From: Gemelliphila palaticanis
Lineage (GTDB): Bacteria > Bacillota > Bacilli > Staphylococcales > Gemellaceae
DNA length: 24,000 bases
Strand: one strand, 5' to 3'
NCBI RefSeq assembly: GCF_013415235.1
Contig: NZ_JACBYF010000001.1
Both the position numbers and the translations under genes were made by a program. The notes beneath the pieces are model-generated. The model made no database searches. It saw only the letters and a list, made by a program, of their open reading frames with translations, and had not been told where the DNA came from. Positions 11,997 through 24,000 of the stretch are shown piece after piece. How positions within the stretch are numbered: position 1 is the first letter of the stretch; each line of letters starts with the position of its first letter.

Positions 11997-12047
11997 AATT
12001 TTTTTCCTCCCAAATGTATACAATTTATATAATTTTTTACAAACTTA

Positions 12048-13508
12048 TTAGTTATTTCCTTCTGCTCTAAAATATGCTTCTTTATCTTTTGCTCTAGCAT
12101 ATTGTAATTGTGGTATTACTATTAATATTATTGCTACTAAAGCAATTCCCACATATCCTATATTTTTCATTATGAATCCAAAGAATGGCCAAGCTGTTGC
12201 AAAGTCTATATTTCCGTGCCATCCACCTGCTAATTGGAATAATCCTACTGCTGCTGCTCCACCTAGTACTTGAAGAACTCCACAAATTGCAGTAACTATA
12301 ACTGCTGCTTTAACTCCTCCTCGTTTATCTGCATAAACTGCAAGAGTAGCATTATCAAAGAATACCGGAACGAATCCTGTAATTATAAGTATAGGTGACT
12401 TAAATACTACTAATAGAGTAATCATTGTTAACTGAGCTACTAACCCTGTTGCAAATCCGAATAAAATAGCATTTGGATGTGCAAAGTTGTATGATGCTGC
12501 ACAGTCTACAGCTGGTAATGATCCAGGTAATAATCTGCTTGATATACCTTGGAAAGCTTGAGTAAGTTCTGTAACGAACATTCTTACCCCCATCATTAAT
12601 ATTGCAAGATATACAGAGAATTTTAATGATGTTGATAAAATATAAGTTCCATACCATACTTTTTTATCAAATAAAACTCCCGCTACTGCTTTATCACCTG
12701 TTAGTTCTACTAATTTTGGATCTGACATTAAATCTGGCCCTAAGAAAAGTAATATCGCTCCGAAAAAGAATAGCATTAAAGTACCTGTAGCTACAACGTT
12801 ATCATGGAATATTGATAATGCTTTTGGTAATTTAATATCAGCTACTCTCTTATTAGGATTTCCTACTTTAGCAGCTATTTTATCTGCAACCCAGATTGAA
12901 AACATTTGCTGATGACCAATAGCAAATCCTGAATTGTTAGTTAATCTTTGTGTTGGTTCAACTGTTAAATTAGAACCTGCTCCCCAATAAAGTCCTACAA
13001 GTAACCCTACTAAAACTGTTCCTGTTGTATTTCTAAGTTCAGGAAATACTGAAAACATAATCCATGTAACAGTTGTAGCTTGTTGTAACATAACATGTCC
13101 TGTAATAAATAGAGACCTTACTTTAGTAACTTTTCTAAATATAATTAATGTTATGTTAACTGCAAAACCTATACATAAAGCTATCATTGTATTTGAAGCA
13201 GATTGTCCTATTCCTTTTAATGCAGAGTTTACAGCTGCTAATCCGAAATAAGGGTCAATAACTGCTGCATCTATTTCAAATTTAACTTTAAGTGCTGCAA
13301 GTATAGGTCTAAATGTCGTTACAAGACCTCCAGCCCCTACAGAAAGAATCATAAAACCAACAGTAGCTTTTAAAAACCCTGCAAAGCTATCATAAATAGG
13401 TTTTTTTAATAGCATATAACCTACAAATACTATTATACCTATAAAGAATTCTGGTTTAGTAAGTATATTAGTTACAAACCAGCTTAATACTTTTAATAAT
13501 ACATCCAT
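12048..13508 (-). CDS. ulaA: PTS ascorbate-family EIIC permease
   Basis: 486 aa polytopic membrane protein with SgaT/UlaA-like length and composition. It is the first gene of the ulaABCDEF cluster. RBS AAGGAGGA. Confidence 0.92.
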   Translation of the reverse strand: MDVLLKVLSWFVTNILTKPEFFIGIIVFVGYMLLKKPIYDSFAGFLKATVGFMILSVGAGGLVTTFRPILAALKVKFEIDAAVIDPYFGLAAVNSALKGIGQSASNTMIALCIGFAVNITLIIFRKVTKVRSLFITGHVMLQQATTVTWIMFSVFPELRNTTGTVLVGLLVGLYWGAGSNLTVEPTQRLTNNSGFAIGHQQMFSIWVADKIAAKVGNPNKRVADIKLPKALSIFHDNVVATGTLMLFFFGAILLFLGPDLMSDPKLVELTGDKAVAGVLFDKKVWYGTYILSTSLKFSVYLAILMMGVRMFVTELTQAFQGISSRLLPGSLPAVDCAASYNFAHPNAILFGFATGLVAQLTMITLLVVFKSPILIITGFVPVFFDNATLAVYADKRGGVKAAVIVTAICGVLQVLGGAAAVGLFQLAGGWHGNIDFATAWPFFGFIMKNIGYVGIALVAIILIVIPQLQYARAKDKEAYFRAEGNN

Positions 13509-13615
13509 GTATTACATCCTCCTTAATTTAATTTTAAAAAATGAATGTTTCGATTACATATTTTATTTTATATTAAGTTTAAAAATAAAAAAATACCAAT
13601 TAAGTAACAGATATA

Positions 13616-13723
13616 TGTACAATTTTTATTTAATAACATTTGTATATTATCAAAAAATATCATTATATAGTAGAAAAAATTAAAAAATTATTTTTTCAAA
13701 ATGTGTACAATACTTTGTACAAT
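13616..13723. promoter_or_regulatory. Three copies of TGTACAAT (palindromic TGTACA core) in the ulaA/ulaG divergent control region; candidate operator sites
   Basis: Exact 8-mers at 13616-13623, 13704-13711 and 13716-13723. The last two are direct repeats 12 bp apart. Confidence 0.35.
13695..13723 (+). promoter_or_regulatory. Candidate ulaG promoter (TTCAAA, 17 nt spacer, TACAAT)
   Basis: The hexamer spacing is exactly 17 nt. The -10 element overlaps one TGTACAAT copy. The promoter lies about 80 nt upstream of the ulaG ATG. Confidence 0.35.
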
Positions 13724-13807
13724 AATTGGACTTTTTTTAAAAGTTCTTATGAAATATACTTAAGTTAACAAACGATGTAAATTAATATAAAAATGGAGGA
13801 CAATTAT

Positions 13808-14899
13808 ATGTCAAAAGTAAATGAGATAACTAGAGAATCTTGGATTCTTAGCACATTTCCAGAATGGGGAACTTGGCTTAACGAAGAAATAGAAAGTGAA
13901 GTAGTTCCTGAAGGTAACTTTGCTATGTGGTGGCTAGGATGTGTAGGAGTTTGGATTAAAACTCCTGGTGGTGCAAATATTTGTATGGATTTATGGTGTA
14001 GCCGTGGTAAAAGTACTAAAAAAGTTAAAGACATGGTTAGAGGACACCAAATGGCTAACATGGCTGGAGTTAGAAAACTTCAACCTAACTTACGTGCACA
14101 ACCTATGGTGTTAGACCCATTCGCTATTAATGAAGTTGATTTTATTCTTGCATCTCACTACCATAGTGACCATATAGATGTAAATGTAGCTGCTGCTATA
14201 GTAAATAATCCTAATCTTGATCACGTTAAATTTGTAGGTCCTTGGCATTGTACTGAACTATGGAAAAAATGGGGAGTACCTGAAGAAAGACTTATCACTG
14301 TTAAACCTGGAGATGTAGTTAAAATAAAAGATGTAGAAATACATGCTCTAGACTCATTCGATAGAACATGTTTAGTTACTCTTCCTGTAGAAGGAGCTGA
14401 GGCTCAAGGTGGAGAATTAGCTGGTCTTTGCCCATCTGATGAAGAAATGGGAAGAAAAGCAGTAAACTACGTATTTAAAACTCCTGGTGGAAATATTTAT
14501 CACGGTGCTGACTCTCACTATTCTATTCAATTTGCTAAACACGGTAAAGAGTTCGATATAGATGTAGCACTTAATAATTACGGAGAAAATCCTGTAGGTA
14601 TAGCAGATAAAATGACTTCTATAGATCTTCTTAGAATGGCTGAATGTCTAAGAACTAATGTTATAATTCCTGTTCATCATGATATATGGACTAACTTTAT
14701 GGCAAGTACTCAAGAGATAATTGATTTATGGAGAATGAGAAAAGATAGATTACAATATAAATTCCATCCATTTATTTGGGAAGTTGGTGGAAAATATGTT
14801 TATCCACAAGATAAAGATTTAATTGAATATCACCACCCACGTGGATTTGATGATTGCTTCGAGCAAGAGCCTAACATCCAATTCAAATCAATGCTATAA
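13808..14899 (+). CDS. ulaG: L-ascorbate-6-phosphate lactonase (metallo-beta-lactamase superfamily)
   Basis: 363 aa from [29 protein letters not shown]. It is near-collinear with E. coli UlaG ([27 protein letters not shown]..., C-terminal PRGFDDCF). GGAGGA at 13795-13800 lies 7 nt before the ATG at 13808. The track start at 13793 lies inside the RBS. Confidence 0.93.
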
Positions 14900-14902
14900 A
14901 AT

Positions 14903-14946
14903 AAAATCTTATGCAACAAAATGAAGTTGCATAAGATTTTTTGTTT
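14903..14946. terminator. Rho-independent terminator after ulaG, probably bidirectional and shared with the convergent permease gene
   Basis: A 14-bp stem, AAATCTTATGCAAC (14904-14917) pairing with GTTGCATAAGATTT (14926-14939). It is followed by TTTTGTTTG and has an A-rich 5' flank. Confidence 0.8.
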
Positions 14947-14966
14947 GTTTAATTATCTATTAACTA

Positions 14967-16286
14967 TTATTTCTTTGGCTCAGGTATTATTTTATTCATT
15001 ATAATAGCTACAATTGCTCCTATTGCTATCGGTGAACCAAGTAAATATTGTACCATATGAGGAGTCGATTCTACAACTTCTTTAGGTATAAATAATAATC
15101 CTATAGCAAAAATTAGTGGTAATCCTATGATATATAATTCTCTTTCATTAAATTCTGCATTTTTTACTACTCTAAAACCATTAAGCATTATTATCATACA
15201 AACTACAGCAAAAACTCCTCCTATTACTGCCGATGGGATAGAATTAATAATTGCTGCTAATTTTCCTAAAAATGAAAGTAATATAAACCAACCAGATGCA
15301 AAAATAAAAACTTTTTTACTCGCAATACCTGTTATAGAAATAATACCTGCATTTGTTGAATATCCTGTTACTGGAGTTGATCCTACTAGCGCAGAAACTA
15401 AACAACCAACACCTTCACCTATAACTCCTTTATTAACTTGAGTATCTGTCAAAGGTTCATTTATTACCGAACTAACTGCATACCACGTACCTGTAGTTTC
15501 TGCTAATAAAACCATATAAATAACAATCATAGTTAAAATAGCTGCTCCATTAAAACTAATATCATAATTTATAAAAGCAAATTTAGGAAAACTGAAGAAA
15601 CTTGCTTCTGATATAGCTTTTGTACTAAATCCTCCCATCAAATAAGCAGAAAATGTTCCTGCACCTAATGCTAAAATTACAGAACTAATTTGTAACAATC
15701 TACTATATTTTTTAAAATATGTTCCTATCGTAGAGAATAAAACTAAAGTAGTGGCTGTTATCAATGCTAATGTAATATTTTGATTAATTGATAGAGTTTC
15801 ACTGGCAACATAAATATTACTATTAAATGCTGCGGGTAACAAAGTTAAACCTACAATCATTATTATTGTTCCACTTACTATAGAAGGAATATAGTTTCGA
15901 ACTATATATTTATATATACCTGAAAAACCTAGTAAAATAACTAGTAAAGCGCCAATAATACTAGCCCCTAAAACACTACCCATTCCATTTGAGCCGATAT
16001 ATATTCCTATAATTGCTCCAATTGGTACAAATGAAGGACCTTGACAAACAGGAAGTTTTAAATAAAACAATACTTGAATAAGTGATGCTAACCCTGCTGC
16101 TAAAAATGTTGATTGAATAAGTCCAGTAGCATCTCCTGCAGTCATAGCTAACGCTGTTGCAATAATAAATGGTGGTACGTAAATATCCATAGCTAAAACA
16201 TGCTGTAAACCTAAAATTGATGCTTGTGAAAATGGTATATTATCGTTAACTCCAATTGTTAAATTATTTTTTCTTCTATTACTCAT
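14967..16286 (-). CDS. NCS2-family nucleobase permease (xanthine/uracil/guanine type)
   Basis: 439 aa with about 12-13 hydrophobic segments and composition typical of the xanthine/uracil permease family. It lies 12 nt downstream of guaD, with an AGGGGG RBS. Confidence 0.8.
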   Translation of the reverse strand: MSNRRKNNLTIGVNDNIPFSQASILGLQHVLAMDIYVPPFIIATALAMTAGDATGLIQSTFLAAGLASLIQVLFYLKLPVCQGPSFVPIGAIIGIYIGSNGMGSVLGASIIGALLVILLGFSGIYKYIVRNYIPSIVSGTIIMIVGLTLLPAAFNSNIYVASETLSINQNITLALITATTLVLFSTIGTYFKKYSRLLQISSVILALGAGTFSAYLMGGFSTKAISEASFFSFPKFAFINYDISFNGAAILTMIVIYMVLLAETTGTWYAVSSVINEPLTDTQVNKGVIGEGVGCLVSALVGSTPVTGYSTNAGIISITGIASKKVFIFASGWFILLSFLGKLAAIINSIPSAVIGGVFAVVCMIIMLNGFRVVKNAEFNERELYIIGLPLIFAIGLLFIPKEVVESTPHMVQYLLGSPIAIGAIVAIIMNKIIPEPKK

Positions 16287-16298
16287 AATTGCCCCCTT

Positions 16299-17663
16299 TT
16301 ATTTTTTATGAACTAAATTACCTTGTACGTAAACTTCTTTTATATTTTCTACTGTTGCTAAATAAATAATCTTTTGTAATAGATGCTCTTTTTTAGGAAA
16401 TACACCAAAGTCAGATAAAATATTATTTTTAGCTTTTGTATCAATTACCTGCAAATCACATATATACCCTTTTTCAATCTTACCTAAAGGTAATTGTAGT
16501 GATTCTCCTCCTCCTGTAGTTGCTAAATAAAATGCTTCAATTACTGATATACGTGAATTAGAAACACCTCTTTCACAACTACATTTTTTAGCATCTACTC
16601 CATCTTCTAACATACGAGATACCATAACTGCATGTCTTATATTCTCATATAAACTAGGAGAAAAACCTCCTGAAATGTCAGTTCCTAAACCAATATCAAC
16701 ACCTTGAGATTTAAGTCTTTTTACTGGTAATACTGCATTAGCAAAGTAAGAGTTTGAAATAGGACAATGCCCCACAGCAGTTCCTGTTTTCGCAAATATT
16801 TCTCCATCTTCTTCATTAAGAAAATTACAATGTGCCATAACTGATTTTTTCCCTAGAAGTCCAAATTTTTCAAGAACTTCTGTATCACGTTTACCGAATC
16901 TTTCTTTTACAAAGTCATGCTCCCATTGTCCTTCACTACAATGTGATTGTACATAAGTATTATATTTTTTAGCTAGCTTTCCTAAGCCAAGTAGGGCTTC
17001 ATCTGTGCAACTAGGAACAAATCGTGGAGTAATTACTGGATAAACTCCTTGAATACAATTTTCTGCTACTTTTTTTACATCTAAAATAAATTTTTCTGTA
17101 TTATCAAGTGCTTCAGAAGTAGATTTATCTCTATAAAAATCAGGATTCATAACAGGATCATCCATTACTACTTTTCCTACTAAGCCTCGTTGTCCTAATT
17201 TAGCACAAATTTTTGCTAATTCTAGACTAGCTTCATTATGAATAGTTGCAAAATACATTGCTGTTGTAGTTCCTCGAGCTAAATATTGCGTAACTAAATC
17301 TGTATAAACTTCTCTAGCAAAATTAATATCAGAATACTTTGCTTCTAATGGAAATGTACATTCATCTAACCAAACATTTAATGGTTCATCTAATGCCATT
17401 CCTGCTTGTGGCCATTGAGGAGCATGAACATGAAGATCTACAAAACCTGGTAAAAAATATTCTCCATCAGATAATTCTACAAATTCATAATTATTTTTTG
17501 CATAAATTAATTCTTCTTCATAATTTTTATTATCTTTATTTACTATTTCACTTATAATTCCATTTGAATCAACTTTTATAAGTACATCTTCTAAAAACTC
17601 TAGTTTGCCATATTCTTTTGTGTGAAATGCTGAGCCTTTAAAAGCTTTTTTTATAGTATTCAT
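16299..17663 (-). CDS. guaD: Guanine deaminase (amidohydrolase superfamily)
   Basis: 454 aa. Metal and catalytic motifs are present: PGFVDLHVHAPQ, HCSE and LGTDISGG. It is paired with a nucleobase permease. Confidence 0.82.
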   Translation of the reverse strand: MNTIKKAFKGSAFHTKEYGKLEFLEDVLIKVDSNGIISEIVNKDNKNYEEELIYAKNNYEFVELSDGEYFLPGFVDLHVHAPQWPQAGMALDEPLNVWLDECTFPLEAKYSDINFAREVYTDLVTQYLARGTTTAMYFATIHNEASLELAKICAKLGQRGLVGKVVMDDPVMNPDFYRDKSTSEALDNTEKFILDVKKVAENCIQGVYPVITPRFVPSCTDEALLGLGKLAKKYNTYVQSHCSEGQWEHDFVKERFGKRDTEVLEKFGLLGKKSVMAHCNFLNEEDGEIFAKTGTAVGHCPISNSYFANAVLPVKRLKSQGVDIGLGTDISGGFSPSLYENIRHAVMVSRMLEDGVDAKKCSCERGVSNSRISVIEAFYLATTGGGESLQLPLGKIEKGYICDLQVIDTKAKNNILSDFGVFPKKEHLLQKIIYLATVENIKEVYVQGNLVHKK

Positions 17664-17692
17664 AATTACCTCCTTGTGGTTTTATATTCGTT

Positions 17693-17721
17693 ATTTTAAC
17701 ATATATATTAGTTTTTATCAA
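17693..17721 (-). promoter_or_regulatory. Candidate guaD promoter (TTGATA, 17 nt spacer, TAAAAT)
   Basis: On the minus strand the hexamers sit at 17716-17721 and 17693-17698. The leader to the AGGAGG RBS and ATG would be about 20-25 nt. Confidence 0.4.
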
Positions 17722-17755
17722 CAAATAATTCGTTAATCGATGTATTTTTATTTCT

Positions 17756-17779
17756 ATATGCTAGTCAGCATATTTTTTT
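17756..17779 (+). terminator. Terminator-like hairpin plus T-run oriented on the plus strand, with no plus-strand gene upstream
   Basis: ATATGCT (17756-17762), an AGTC loop, then AGCATAT (17767-17773), followed by T6 (17774-17779). On the minus strand the run is A, so it is not a terminator for the ComK-like gene. Confidence 0.35.
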
Positions 17780-17999
17780 AAAACGTTAAAACCGTACTTT
17801 TTCTCGTTGTTTAAAATTAAAAAGACATACTCCTGTTGAATTCAGAAATATGCCCAATACTAATATTTAATTTTTATATCCAATTAATTGGGGTCATCAC
17901 AATAATGCCATCTTATTTTTAAAACAAATATTAAAATTCTCATTGAATAGTATTTTTACAATATAATTAATTTTATAGTAATATTAATAAAAATAACAC

Positions 18000-18536
18000 C
18001 TAAATATAAATATTACTTGTAGTTATTCTTTTTCTTATTTTATCTATCTCGTATTTTAAAGCTGCTCCTTCTCCCCATTTTGCCATAAAATTTTTATAAT
18101 TTATATCCAATTTTATTTTTTGACCATCTTGAAAAATTAGCTCTATAAATTTATTTTTTTTATCTATTAAAACATTGTGGGGATTTAATGAAATAAAATT
18201 CATATTTAACCAAATACTGCCTTCATTATCATTGTTAGTACTTCCAAAAGGTAGCCAAATACTTCCGTATTCATCGTTTACTAATATCGGTATTTTTTTA
18301 TCGCATAAAATAATTTTTTTCGTTTTTTTGCTACAATACGCATAATCATCGTTATTGTATAATTCGCATATAACATTAATTATTTTTGATGGTTTAGAAT
18401 CTATTAATAAAATATCACTATCGTTACAGTATACTTCTGATACAAGTATTCCTAAATTATCATAATAGCATTTTATAGCCATAAAATCATATTTTTTTAA
18501 TAATACCGTTAAATCTTTAGTAGAATAATAATTCAT
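18000..18536 (-). CDS. comK: ComK-family protein (competence transcription factor-like)
   Basis: 178 aa. Three blocks are collinear with B. subtilis ComK as I recall it. SKPSKIINVIC aligns with MKPLQIVDRSC. KKIPILVNDEYGSIWLPFGS...SIWLNMNFI aligns with HKPPIMVDPSNQIFLFPTLS...GWISHVHV. IELIFQDGQKIKLDINYKNFMAKWGEGAAL aligns with TEVTFSNGKTMELPISYNSFENQVYRTAWL. Confidence 0.6.
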   Translation of the reverse strand: MNYYSTKDLTVLLKKYDFMAIKCYYDNLGILVSEVYCNDSDILLIDSKPSKIINVICELYNNDDYAYCSKKTKKIILCDKKIPILVNDEYGSIWLPFGSTNNDNEGSIWLNMNFISLNPHNVLIDKKNKFIELIFQDGQKIKLDINYKNFMAKWGEGAALKYEIDKIRKRITTSNIYI

Positions 18537-18556
18537 ATATACTCACCTCTACTAAA

Positions 18557-18565
18557 ATTATATCA
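18557..18565 (-). promoter_or_regulatory. Candidate extended -10 (TGATATAAT) for the ComK-like gene
   Basis: The minus strand reads TGATATAAT about 20 nt upstream of the ATG at 18536. The leader would be very short, running into the AGAGGTGAG RBS. Confidence 0.3.
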
Positions 18566-18592
18566 AAACATATAATTAAATTCTATAAAAAA

Positions 18593-18676
18593 ATAGACGA
18601 GGTTTAAACTAAATTCAAAACATTACTAATATTAATTTTAAAATCTTAATAATGATTTTTTATCTACCTCGTCTAT
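18593..18676 (-). terminator. 11-bp inverted repeat with a 62-nt spacer, followed by a T-run; probable atypical terminator of the rho operon
   Basis: ATAGACGAGGT (18593-18603) pairs with ACCTCGTCTAT (18666-18676). On the minus strand the 3' arm is followed by TTTTTT. The structure starts 14 nt after the stop of the TGA-containing ORF. Confidence 0.45.
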
Positions 18677-18689
18677 AAACTATTTTATT

Positions 18690-18980
18690 TTAAAAGAATA
18701 AAGATATACCATGTACTGTAAGTGATTTTAAGAATAAAAATCCTTCCATAGCTATAGTTAAATGTTCTTCTTTTAATTTTACACTCTTATGCACATATAT
18801 TTCTAATTCTTCAGTTGAGAAATGATTATACTCATCTAATTTTTTGGGTTTACCTACTGTCACAGTAGCTACATTTTGAGGTCCGCCTCAACAACTAAAT
18901 GCTTTTACTGATATAGATAATTCTTTTATATTTTTTTTTGATATATATTTTTTTGCATCATCTTCTATTATAAATTTCAT
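18690..18980 (-). CDS. Candidate small selenoprotein (96 codons) with in-frame TGA at 18888-18890 in a Cys-Sec-Gly-Gly-Pro context; HesB/IscA-like
   Basis: My minus-strand translation: MKFIIEDDAKKYISKKNIKELSISVKAFSC[TGA]GGPQNVATVTVGKPKKLDEYNHFSTEELEIYVHKSVKLKEEHLTIAMEGFLFLKSLTVHGISLFF, ending in TAA. AAGGAG lies 7 nt upstream of the ATG (18978-18980). The ATG is 2 nt after the upstream gene's stop. After the TGA, 65 stop-free codons continue in the same frame. Confidence 0.6.
18854..18890 (-). promoter_or_regulatory. Candidate bacterial SECIS region downstream of the in-frame UGA
   Basis: In the mRNA, UGAGG-CGGA-CCUCA (18890-18877) is a 5-bp stem that includes the UGA. A second hairpin, CUACUG-UGA-CAGUAG (18868-18854), places a G-containing apical loop about 26 nt after the UGA. 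Confidence 0.4.
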
Positions 18981-18982
18981 TT

Positions 18983-19630
18983 TTACTCCTTTATAAAATC
19001 TTCATATGTATAATAAATTTTAGTATCATTTTTTAAAGTATAATAAATCATTGTTTTTGCTAAATTTTCTACTTTTATAGGTTTGTAATTAATAAACTTT
19101 CCAAAAAATAAATTTGATAATACTGGTAAAATTTTCATACCAAAACTTTCTAATATTCTATTATCATTTCTTTTAGCTATTAGTAGTGATGGTTGAAATA
19201 TTCTCAAATAATTTATTCTCAATTTTTTTAGACTTTCTTCTAATAAGCCTTTTGTATTAAGATAGAAATTACTACTATTAGAATTTGCCCCTATTGAAGA
19301 TACAATATTAAAACTATTAACTCTATTTTCACACAATTTAGCAACATTTATAATATAAGTATAATCTACTTTAAATTGATTTTCTTTTGTTTTAGCAACT
19401 TTTATAGTAGTCCCTAATGCACAATATACATCAGCGTTATTTAAAATTTCTAAATCAAATTTAATATTTTCAAAATCTATAACAATAGGAATAAAATCAC
19501 CTTTATTCGAAATATTAAGAATAGACTTCCTACCTAAAACATATATTTCACTATATCTAGGCTCTAATAAAATATTTTTTAATAATTCTTTACCTACAGC
19601 TCCTGTAGCACCTAAAATTACTGCTTTCAT
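18983..19630 (-). CDS. NAD(P)H-binding Rossmann-fold protein (atypical SDR-like)
   Basis: 215 aa. The N-terminus MKAVILGATGAVGKELL carries the GxxGxxG dinucleotide-binding motif. The specific function is not inferable. Confidence 0.75.
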   Translation of the reverse strand: MKAVILGATGAVGKELLKNILLEPRYSEIYVLGRKSILNISNKGDFIPIVIDFENIKFDLEILNNADVYCALGTTIKVAKTKENQFKVDYTYIINVAKLCENRVNSFNIVSSIGANSNSSNFYLNTKGLLEESLKKLRINYLRIFQPSLLIAKRNDNRILESFGMKILPVLSNLFFGKFINYKPIKVENLAKTMIYYTLKNDTKIYYTYEDFIKE

Positions 19631-19640
19631 AATTATATTT

Positions 19641-20273
19641 TTATATAAAAGTAGTTATTTTTTCAGCAGGTAATCTATAAGTTTCTCTACCTTCTTTTGC
19701 TGGTTTTCCAATAGCTACTATCATAACTGGTACATATCTTTCTTTATCGAACCCTAGTGCTTCAACAATATTCTTATGATCAAATCCACCAATCGCATTT
19801 GTTTCATATCCGTGTGCTCTAGCAACAAGCATTAACTGCATAGCTGCTAAACTAGAATCAATTTTTACAATATCATTCATTTGAGACTCAGTAAGACTAT
19901 CATACAAACCTACAAAATTAGGAAGAATTTGCTCTTTAACTTCTTTTGGCATATACCCTTTTTCTACTGCTTTTGTATATATTTCTTCTGCATATTCTTG
20001 AGGATTTTTATCTCCTAATATAACTATCATAGCTGATGACGTATCATTTTGTCTTTGATTGAATGAAACTAATGGTCTTAATTTATTTTTACCTTCTTCT
20101 GTATCTACAACAACAAATCTCCAAGGTTGGAAATTTAAAGAAGATGGAGCTGTTACAGTTTCGTTAATAATTTCTGTAAGTTCTTCTCTAGAAATTTTTA
20201 AATTAGCATCGAACTCTTTAACTGATCGTCTTTCTAACACTATATTTTTAAAATCATTATTTATTATAGTCAT
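19641..20273 (-). CDS. Nitroreductase-family (FMN-dependent) oxidoreductase
   Basis: 210 aa. Nitroreductase-family features are present: RRSVKEF near the N-terminus and PSSLNFQPWRFVVV. RBS AAGGAG. Confidence 0.85.
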   Translation of the reverse strand: MTIINNDFKNIVLERRSVKEFDANLKISREELTEIINETVTAPSSLNFQPWRFVVVDTEEGKNKLRPLVSFNQRQNDTSSAMIVILGDKNPQEYAEEIYTKAVEKGYMPKEVKEQILPNFVGLYDSLTESQMNDIVKIDSSLAAMQLMLVARAHGYETNAIGGFDHKNIVEALGFDKERYVPVMIVAIGKPAKEGRETYRLPAEKITTFI

Positions 20274-20306
20274 TATTATTCTCCTTAAATATTAATTATT
20301 TTATTT

Positions 20307-23873: not shown

Positions 23874-24000
23874 AAAAAAACCTCGTAATACAACGAGGTT
23901 TTTTTTGTCCTCATCGTTCAAAGTAAATCTTTGCTCAGGTTAGCACCTTAGTAAAAACTAGGTTGCTGGAGGTCATAGGGCCTTGTCCCTCACTCACTCT
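23874..24000 (-). promoter_or_regulatory. SAM-I (S-box) riboswitch with terminator expression platform; the 5' end (P1 5' strand) is cut by the window edge
   Basis: The minus strand reads AGAGTGAGTGAGGGACAAGGCCCTATGACCTCCAGCAACCTAGTTTTTACTAAGGTGCTAACCTGAGCAAAGATTTACTTTGAACGATGAGGAC. This matches the S-box core (GAGGGA..GGCCC.ATGA..CAGCAACC...AAGGTGCTAA..GAGCA...GAACGATGAG). It is followed by the terminator AACCTCG-loop-CGAGGTT plus T7 (23874-23900). Confidence 0.88.

Follow-up and report, generated by a model that had tools for sequence, protein, structure and literature searches.

The stretch of Gemelliphila palaticanis DNA analysed here (24,000 nt; hereafter the window) contains on its minus strand a reading frame interrupted by TGA, located in the 446-bp gap between the gene of a putative NAD(P)-binding protein and the ComK-like gene. 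The frame opens with ATG at 18978-18980, continues over 30 sense codons of which the last encodes Cys, meets the TGA, and proceeds through 65 further sense codons to TAA at 18690-18692. On re-reading, the coordinates given for this frame in the preliminary description were correct, as were the length of the gap and the placing of the ATG 2 nt past the upstream stop (TAA at 18983-18985), but the AAGGAG, reported there as 7 nt upstream of the ATG, is separated from it by 5 nt. The genes and coding features are the following.

18690-18980, minus strand: coding sequence of a putative CC/Se-motif selenoprotein of 96 residues (30 codons from ATG, TGA as Sec31, 65 codons, TAA)
18888-18890, minus strand: proposed Sec codon 31, an in-frame TGA kept in the orthologue and in distant family members
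18891-18893, minus strand: Cys30 codon TGT, forming a vicinal Cys-Sec (C-U) pair with the proposed Sec codon (direct reading of the sequence)
18986-18991, minus strand: Shine-Dalgarno sequence AAGGAG, overlapping the final two codons of the gene upstream (direct reading)
18983-19630, minus strand: putative NAD(P)-binding protein of Rossmann type (GATGAVG), 215 aa, with weak Pfam NAD-binding matches only
19641-20273, minus strand: nitroreductase-family gene (PF00881, 3.7e-27), 10 nt upstream of the Rossmann gene

The claim that 65 open codons directly after a stop are improbable by chance was borne out, as 0.8% of the stop-to-stop stretches reach this length at the window GC percentage of 28.7, with empirical and shuffle-based estimates in agreement. 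Moreover, the ORF at 18690-18980 was the sole TGA-split ORF in the window that was neither inside nor antisense to a known gene. Across the gap, the mechanical ORF list contained two halves only, of 30 aa and 57 aa, the latter with an internal GTG start (18861-18863). The gene had been described as missing from the ORF track, which is true of this list; however, a 96-residue gene is already called at exactly the same site in an NCBI record (GCA_053759065.1, contig JBSMTQ010000001.1). The "hypothetical protein" MBF0714695.1 (57 aa) of G. palaticanis corresponds to the C-terminal 57 residues, except for the GTG-encoded start. The UniRef name of this fragment, 'Transposase', looks like a misnomer.

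The split seen in the ORF list and in the NCBI G. palaticanis record speaks for two independent small genes, i.e. a 30-codon ORF ending at the TGA and a 57-codon ORF from the GTG, a reading which we regard as very improbable; ahead of the GTG, nothing resembling a Shine-Dalgarno sequence was noticed. The older annotation, with the 57-aa fragment only, would also suit a dead or silent gene, in which UGA terminates translation and leaves a 30-residue peptide, either after loss of the Sec machinery or because a codon that once encoded Cys mutated to TGA. The probability of this second account is low, and the 65 downstream codons without frameshift or extra stop (P about 0.008 by chance) argue against it. 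Most likely, the in-frame TGA encodes selenocysteine in a real 96-codon gene.

With U replaced by C, the product matched the NCBIfam model NF041239, "CC/Se motif family (seleno)protein", with 65.1 bits (E = 4.4e-18) against a curated cut-off of 40 bits, and the match extended over protein residues 1-91 and model positions 1-90 of 91. The RefSeq family of this name, which had been mentioned in the preliminary description, accordingly exists and is matched at full length. In the NCBIfam scan at E ≤ 1, NF041239 was accompanied by a spurious SigI match only, and TIGR01911 was unmatched. The Pfam-A scan of the protein at E ≤ 1 returned no match, because the Pfam-A copy scanned was without PF28096; this family (CC_Se_fam) is precomputed on the orthologue P0001 in a large protein collection. 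The size of 96 residues in one domain agrees with the about 90-100 residues of the family, so that HMM score, Sec/Cys motif column and size all place the protein in the CC/Se family.

On the basis of the reference sequences in the supplement of PMC12013277, the Gemella protein was 37% and 30% identical to Moorella selenoproteins 2 and 1, respectively, in ungapped alignments with U31 on U31, and the Moorella proteins scored 83-98 bits against the family profile/HMM. Both the NF041239 model and the Moorella proteins align continuously through the TGA, which is contrary to the reading as two genes. NF041239 is the Moorella family according to PMC13188914, and Peng et al. 2016 counted the CC/Se (Moorella) family in 8 organisms (PMC5029168, Table S3). 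The selenoprotein is therefore assigned to the 'Moorella hypothetical' or CC-Se family, separate from the HesB-like selenoprotein family proper. It resembles other members in its length (about 95 aa), in Sec at the same column (U31) and in the conserved G-x-P and V-Y-V landmarks, in a family where both Sec and Cys forms exist. It differs in its vicinal Cys-Sec (S-C-U-G-G-P), whereas the Moorella references and the motif given in the review are CxxU, and in its host, which belongs to Bacilli (Gemellaceae), whereas Moorella is a clostridial thermophile.

The earlier observation and its interpretation were thus upheld, and the finding is correct but already known, because the family has been published and is curated in both NCBIfam and Pfam, Sec decoding is known for the genus, and the gene is called in a public record. 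The established CC/Se selenoprotein family thereby gains a member from Gemellaceae whose motif is a vicinal Cys-Sec, and the knowledge of selenocysteine decoding is left unchanged. As a matter of quality control, mechanical ORF lists and older annotations split the gene, as illustrated by the 57-aa fragment in the G. palaticanis record. In the literature searched, experimental data on family members were not found. A reference-genome scan using the selenoprotein itself returned no relatives, and nothing was found in two scans of metagenomes, for which the patterns were chosen by the tool in the first case and designed by hand, as a degenerate pattern for GKPKKLDEYNHF, in the second.

When 1.84 billion representatives were searched exhaustively with phmmer, 82 family members were obtained, which together with the query P0001 formed a census set of 83. 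P0001, the closest full-length relative (loci L002 and L003, from two Logan runs), shared 88% amino-acid identity with the Gemella protein. Although it is stored with "W" at residue 31, its DNA has TGA at this position and both halves of the frame are intact. It had been asked previously whether orthologous loci keep TGA or carry TGY, and the relative at 88% identity keeps TGA and has no sense codon there, which speaks against a dead gene.

When the 83 sequences were aligned to the family profile, the TGA column contained Cys in 38 (29 of them as CC) and "W" in 31, while 11 were C-terminal fragments of 55-63 aa and three had neither residue. This agrees with the expectation that homologues carry Cys or Sec at the column, as TGA was present in all five "W" members whose DNA was inspected. 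Besides P0001, these were four unrelated members (L004, L007, L008 and L093) with TGA at the homologous column, and their TGA, together with that of the published selenoproteins, is further evidence against loss of function. Accordingly, the in-frame UGA is conserved in orthologues and Cys homologues occur at the same position. About a third of the family representatives (P0001, P0043, P0045, P0054, P0090 and some 26 others) have Trp entered at the Sec position, a consequence of the use of genetic code 4/25 by metagenome gene callers.

Among the 31 Sec-form motifs, CxxU (12) and U alone (10) preceded vicinal C-U (7). The vicinal C-U of Gemella type is a minority Sec form, which mirrors the dominant CC Cys form, and Cys30-Sec31 would be the Sec counterpart of the CC motif common in the family. 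The 11 C-terminal fragments are truncated calls of Sec forms; the sequence of P0093, for instance, recurs unchanged at the C-terminus of P0054. As truncations of full-length members, they count against two separate genes. Sources of the fragments include a Thermoanaerobacteraceae MAG, in which the protein already bears the name CC/Se (seleno)protein, as well as Treponema pedis and Bacillus aquiflavi.

The "W" in the Logan and ENA gene calls also bears on a third alternative, decoding of the UGA as an amino acid other than Sec, i.e. as Trp in a code-4-like manner, or as Cys or Trp by near-cognate read-through. Usage of TGA elsewhere in Gemella DNA is partly in its favour. None of the 21 genes of the window ends in TGA, as stated in the preliminary description and confirmed by the recount (TAA 15, TAG 6), and over 43 kb of the source contig (L095 and L096, 390,999-434,006) the stops of 39 called genes were TAA in 29, TAG in nine and TGA in one. 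The single TGA-terminated gene (L095 14032-14541) is located inside an integrase-bearing mobile element. In other Gemella MAGs, TGA stops numbered 0/11 in L012, and the two TGA-ended ORFs of L014 were frameshift artefacts, leaving no genuine TGA stop in either. TGA is strikingly rare as a stop in Gemella DNA, and TAG is far commoner.

The other 38 genes of the same 43 kb, however, contained 66 TGG codons and no in-frame TGA, codon 31 of the selenoprotein gene being the sole in-frame TGA, and TGA terminates at least one gene. UGA accordingly does not stand for Trp, nor is it left unassigned, and both of these possibilities (code 4, unassigned UGA) are rejected for Gemella. Moreover, the column is Cys in 38 homologues and never genuine Trp, and the CC/Se family is curated and published as Sec/Cys. 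Decoding as a non-Sec residue is accordingly given a minimal probability, and selenocysteine is preferred as the meaning of codon 31.

Sec decoding is supported at the level of the genus, as SelD, SelA and SelB were present in all five surveyed Gemella genomes (G. cuniculi, two of G. haemolysans, G. morbillorum and G. sanguinis; PMC5029168, Table S1), with 4-7 known selenoproteins per genome (Table S2 of the same study). The presence of SelA, SelB and SelD in all of these genomes counts against a gene silenced by loss of the Sec machinery. Within the 43 kb examined of the 603-kb contig, sel genes and tRNA-Sec were not found.

Two small RNA hairpins were identified downstream of or around the TGA.

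18851-18871 (core 18854-18868), minus strand: candidate SECIS hairpin CUACUG-UGA-CAGUAG, invariant in the orthologue
18876-18891, minus strand: small 6-bp hairpin UUGAGG-CGGA-CCUCAA, the 5' arm of which includes the UGA

In bacterial SECIS elements, the UGA and the apical loop are separated by about 16-37 nt, the first loop positions contain G, and the loop of the E. coli fdhF SECIS is GGUC. The candidate hairpin begins 20 nt past the UGA and has its core at +23 to +37, and its UGA loop carries G or, when read as a GUGAC pentaloop, contains GU. Between the orthologue and the window, there was one synonymous change in the ~100 nt after the TGA, compared with 14 changes in the 90 nt that precede this codon. 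All four other Sec-form loci (L004, L007, L008 and L093) had 4-8 bp hairpins starting from +17 to +23 with GU in the loop, which in L007 is GGUU. An equally good hairpin at the same offset occurred at about 6.6-6.8% of codon positions in the genes of the window, and the candidate is thus compatible with the bacterial consensus but, given a background of about 7%, neither significant alone nor conclusive. Rfam returned no match for the hairpin at gathering or permissive thresholds, and is without a suitable bacterial SECIS model. In view of its position and loop features, and of the literature on the genus, the hairpin may recruit SelB. The hairpin at 18876-18891, where the single orthologue substitution nearby (GGC to GGG) lands in the loop, could belong to an extended SECIS or could have arisen by chance.

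A stronger hairpin than that of the Gemella Sec gene was present in a Cys-form relative with TGC (L009 8001-8297, from a Clostridia MAG), in which an 8-bp hairpin of -14.5 kcal/mol occupies a SECIS-like position. This is perhaps what remains of a SECIS, as in the cases reported in PMC1794560.

The AlphaFold2 model, computed with a 62-sequence family alignment, showed one domain (pLDDT 93.9) with a strand at 2-5, a helix at 7-15, and strands at 20-30, 33-42, 51-55, 60-64, 73-79 and 86-90. Sec31-Gly32 forms the turn of the first long beta-hairpin, between strands 20-30 and 33-42 (beta2-beta3). The single domain requires both halves of the frame, and this hairpin spans the TGA, which again is contrary to two independent genes. 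In the Foldseek search against PDB, the top 11 matches were all IscA, SufA, HesB-like, DsrR or YneR proteins (probability 0.72-1.00, TM 0.37-0.56), and both model and matches agree with the previously noted resemblance of the N-terminus to the start of the HesB/IscA fold. The CC/Se family is hereby linked by structure to this fold.

The proposal that Cys-TGA-Gly-Gly-Pro occupies the Sec site of HesB-like selenoproteins was likewise supported, since hhalign of the family against TIGR01911 (HesB-like selenoprotein) gave 95% probability over 88 columns and placed Sec on Sec, with GGP following in both. Against E. coli IscA the alignment was weak (4.8% probability) and placed IscA Cys35 on Cys30, within one residue of Sec31, and the family profile returned no match among PDB sequences. 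The conserved cysteines of E. coli IscA are Cys35, Cys99 and Cys101. The Gemella protein, which ends in ..HGISLFF, is without C-terminal cysteines.

Regarding PF01521, the IscA-type fold was found in the protein, whereas on the sequence level there was no Pfam match at E ≤ 1 and the first Cys position only was shared. Regarding TIGR01911, Sec was found in U-G-G-P context at the hairpin tip, whereas the HMM was unmatched. The Gemella protein thus shares the fold and the reactive position of IscA/HesB but belongs neither to PF01521 nor to TIGR01911. Like the HesB-like selenoprotein, it is a small single domain with an N-terminal strand-helix-strand and Sec-G-G-P at the hairpin tip, but identity is 26% with no match to the TIGR01911 model at E ≤ 1, and the context is C-U-G-G-P, in contrast to A-U-G-G-P or G-U-G-G-P in the references. 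The HesB-like proteins have no Cys beside Sec, where Gemella has Cys30, and they keep C-terminal cysteines (..GSSEC, ..GCSGCGSTSSCC) which are absent in the Gemella protein. With IscA/SufA/ErpA (PF01521; 1r94, 1s98, 1x0g, 2d2a) it shares the fold (Foldseek probability 0.99-1.00, TM 0.44-0.56) and a reactive Cys/Sec at a beta-hairpin tip, within one residue of Cys35 in the weak hhalign alignment. A sequence-level match to these proteins is missing, and the C-terminal CxC ligands are absent; therefore, canonical three-Cys cluster binding is not possible.

Taken together, we consider it highly probable that the UGA of codon 31 is decoded as Sec in a SelB- and SECIS-dependent manner, and that the product is a 96-residue CC/Se protein of IscA fold with an exposed Cys-Sec pair. 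Translation would start 2 nt past the upstream stop, behind the AAGGAG, as the last gene of its cluster. At codon 31, the UGA would be read as Sec by SelB bound to Sec-tRNA(Sec), with SelB recruited by the short hairpin 20 nt downstream (core 18854-18868), and 65 further codons would follow until TAA. The product would fold like an A-type Fe-S carrier (IscA/HesB) and carry Cys30-Sec31 at the beta2-beta3 hairpin tip, with Gly-Gly-Pro as the next residues.

Mammalian thioredoxin reductase has a C-terminal Gly-Cys-Sec-Gly redox centre at the tail of a flavoenzyme. The Gemella motif is similar in that Cys and Sec are adjacent, accompanied by Gly and placed on an exposed flexible element, where a selenenylsulfide in an eight-membered ring would be possible in principle. 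The protein and its fold are unrelated to thioredoxin reductase, and the motif sits on the tip of an internal hairpin in a protein of 96 residues. By analogy with GCUG, the Cys-Sec pair might be a redox-active or chalcogen/metal-binding centre cycling via a selenenylsulfide, and this part of the interpretation is the least certain. In this respect, it might be closer to thioredoxin reductase than to a canonical Fe-S cluster site with three Cys ligands.

The selenoprotein gene is the last one in a co-directional cluster of rho, carbonic anhydrase, nitroreductase, the Rossmann gene and itself, with gaps of 12, 33, 10 and 2 nt, respectively, and the cluster arrangement is identical in L002. Since the stop of the Rossmann gene lies 2 nt before the ATG of the selenoprotein gene, these two are likely translationally coupled. 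Two further elements of the minus strand were located at the end of the cluster and at the end of the window.

18586-18676, minus strand: terminator-like element between the selenoprotein gene and comK, ending the operon (z = -2.49)
23908-24000, minus strand: SAM riboswitch RF00162 (58.2 bits), upstream of metK and cut by the window end

The terminator-like element consists of an 11-bp perfect stem (AUAGACGAGGU / ACCUCGUCUAU), the ~62 nt within this stem, which contain an inner hairpin, and U7 after it. Its start and 5' arm are identical in the diverged orthologue L002.

A conserved gene neighbourhood was rejected, as homologues of the Rossmann protein, nitroreductase and ComK were all absent beside the family members in L004-L011. 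The neighbours not being conserved, gene context gives no function, and a redox role is without support from context. We nevertheless mention, as a rather unlikely proposition, that the CC/Se family could be a repurposed IscA fold without C-terminal ligands, in which the vicinal Cys-Sec (or Cys-Cys) of the hairpin tip serves as a selenenylsulfide centre similar to that of thioredoxin reductase, or as a Se/S carrier. In Gemella, the co-transcribed and translationally coupled Rossmann protein and nitroreductase would feed this centre. If true, NAD(P)H and the selenoprotein would be connected by a minimal relay of a kind not described before.

A Rho-based scan of reference genomes, in which universal motifs dominated, returned two Gemella MAG loci only, one of which ended too early and the other (L012) was missing the block. 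Absence of the block from L012 implies that the gene is dispensable, which is in line with a dead gene, the account considered above as of low probability; it also identifies the block as a variable segment in Gemella. In the comparison of L012 5870-15261 with window positions 12000-20300, Rho was 89% and carbonic anhydrase 87% identical, and synteny stopped after carbonic anhydrase. The genes absent from L012 were the nitroreductase, the Rossmann gene, the CC/Se gene, comK, guanine deaminase and the permease.

In the window, guanine deaminase and permease genes are located at 14967-17663, 1-3 kb from the selenoprotein gene. Purine-related genes were also found near several other family members, i.e. 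a xanthine/uracil permease in L004-L006 and a PucR regulator in L008. The recurrence is loose, and a link between purine genes and the family was not supported.

Just outside the window start, L095 14032-21308 contains genes for a phage-type integrase, RepA_N, two CopY/BlaI-type repressors, a multicopper oxidase and a P-type ATPase. This region is a probable mobile element, and its gene content suggests copper resistance.
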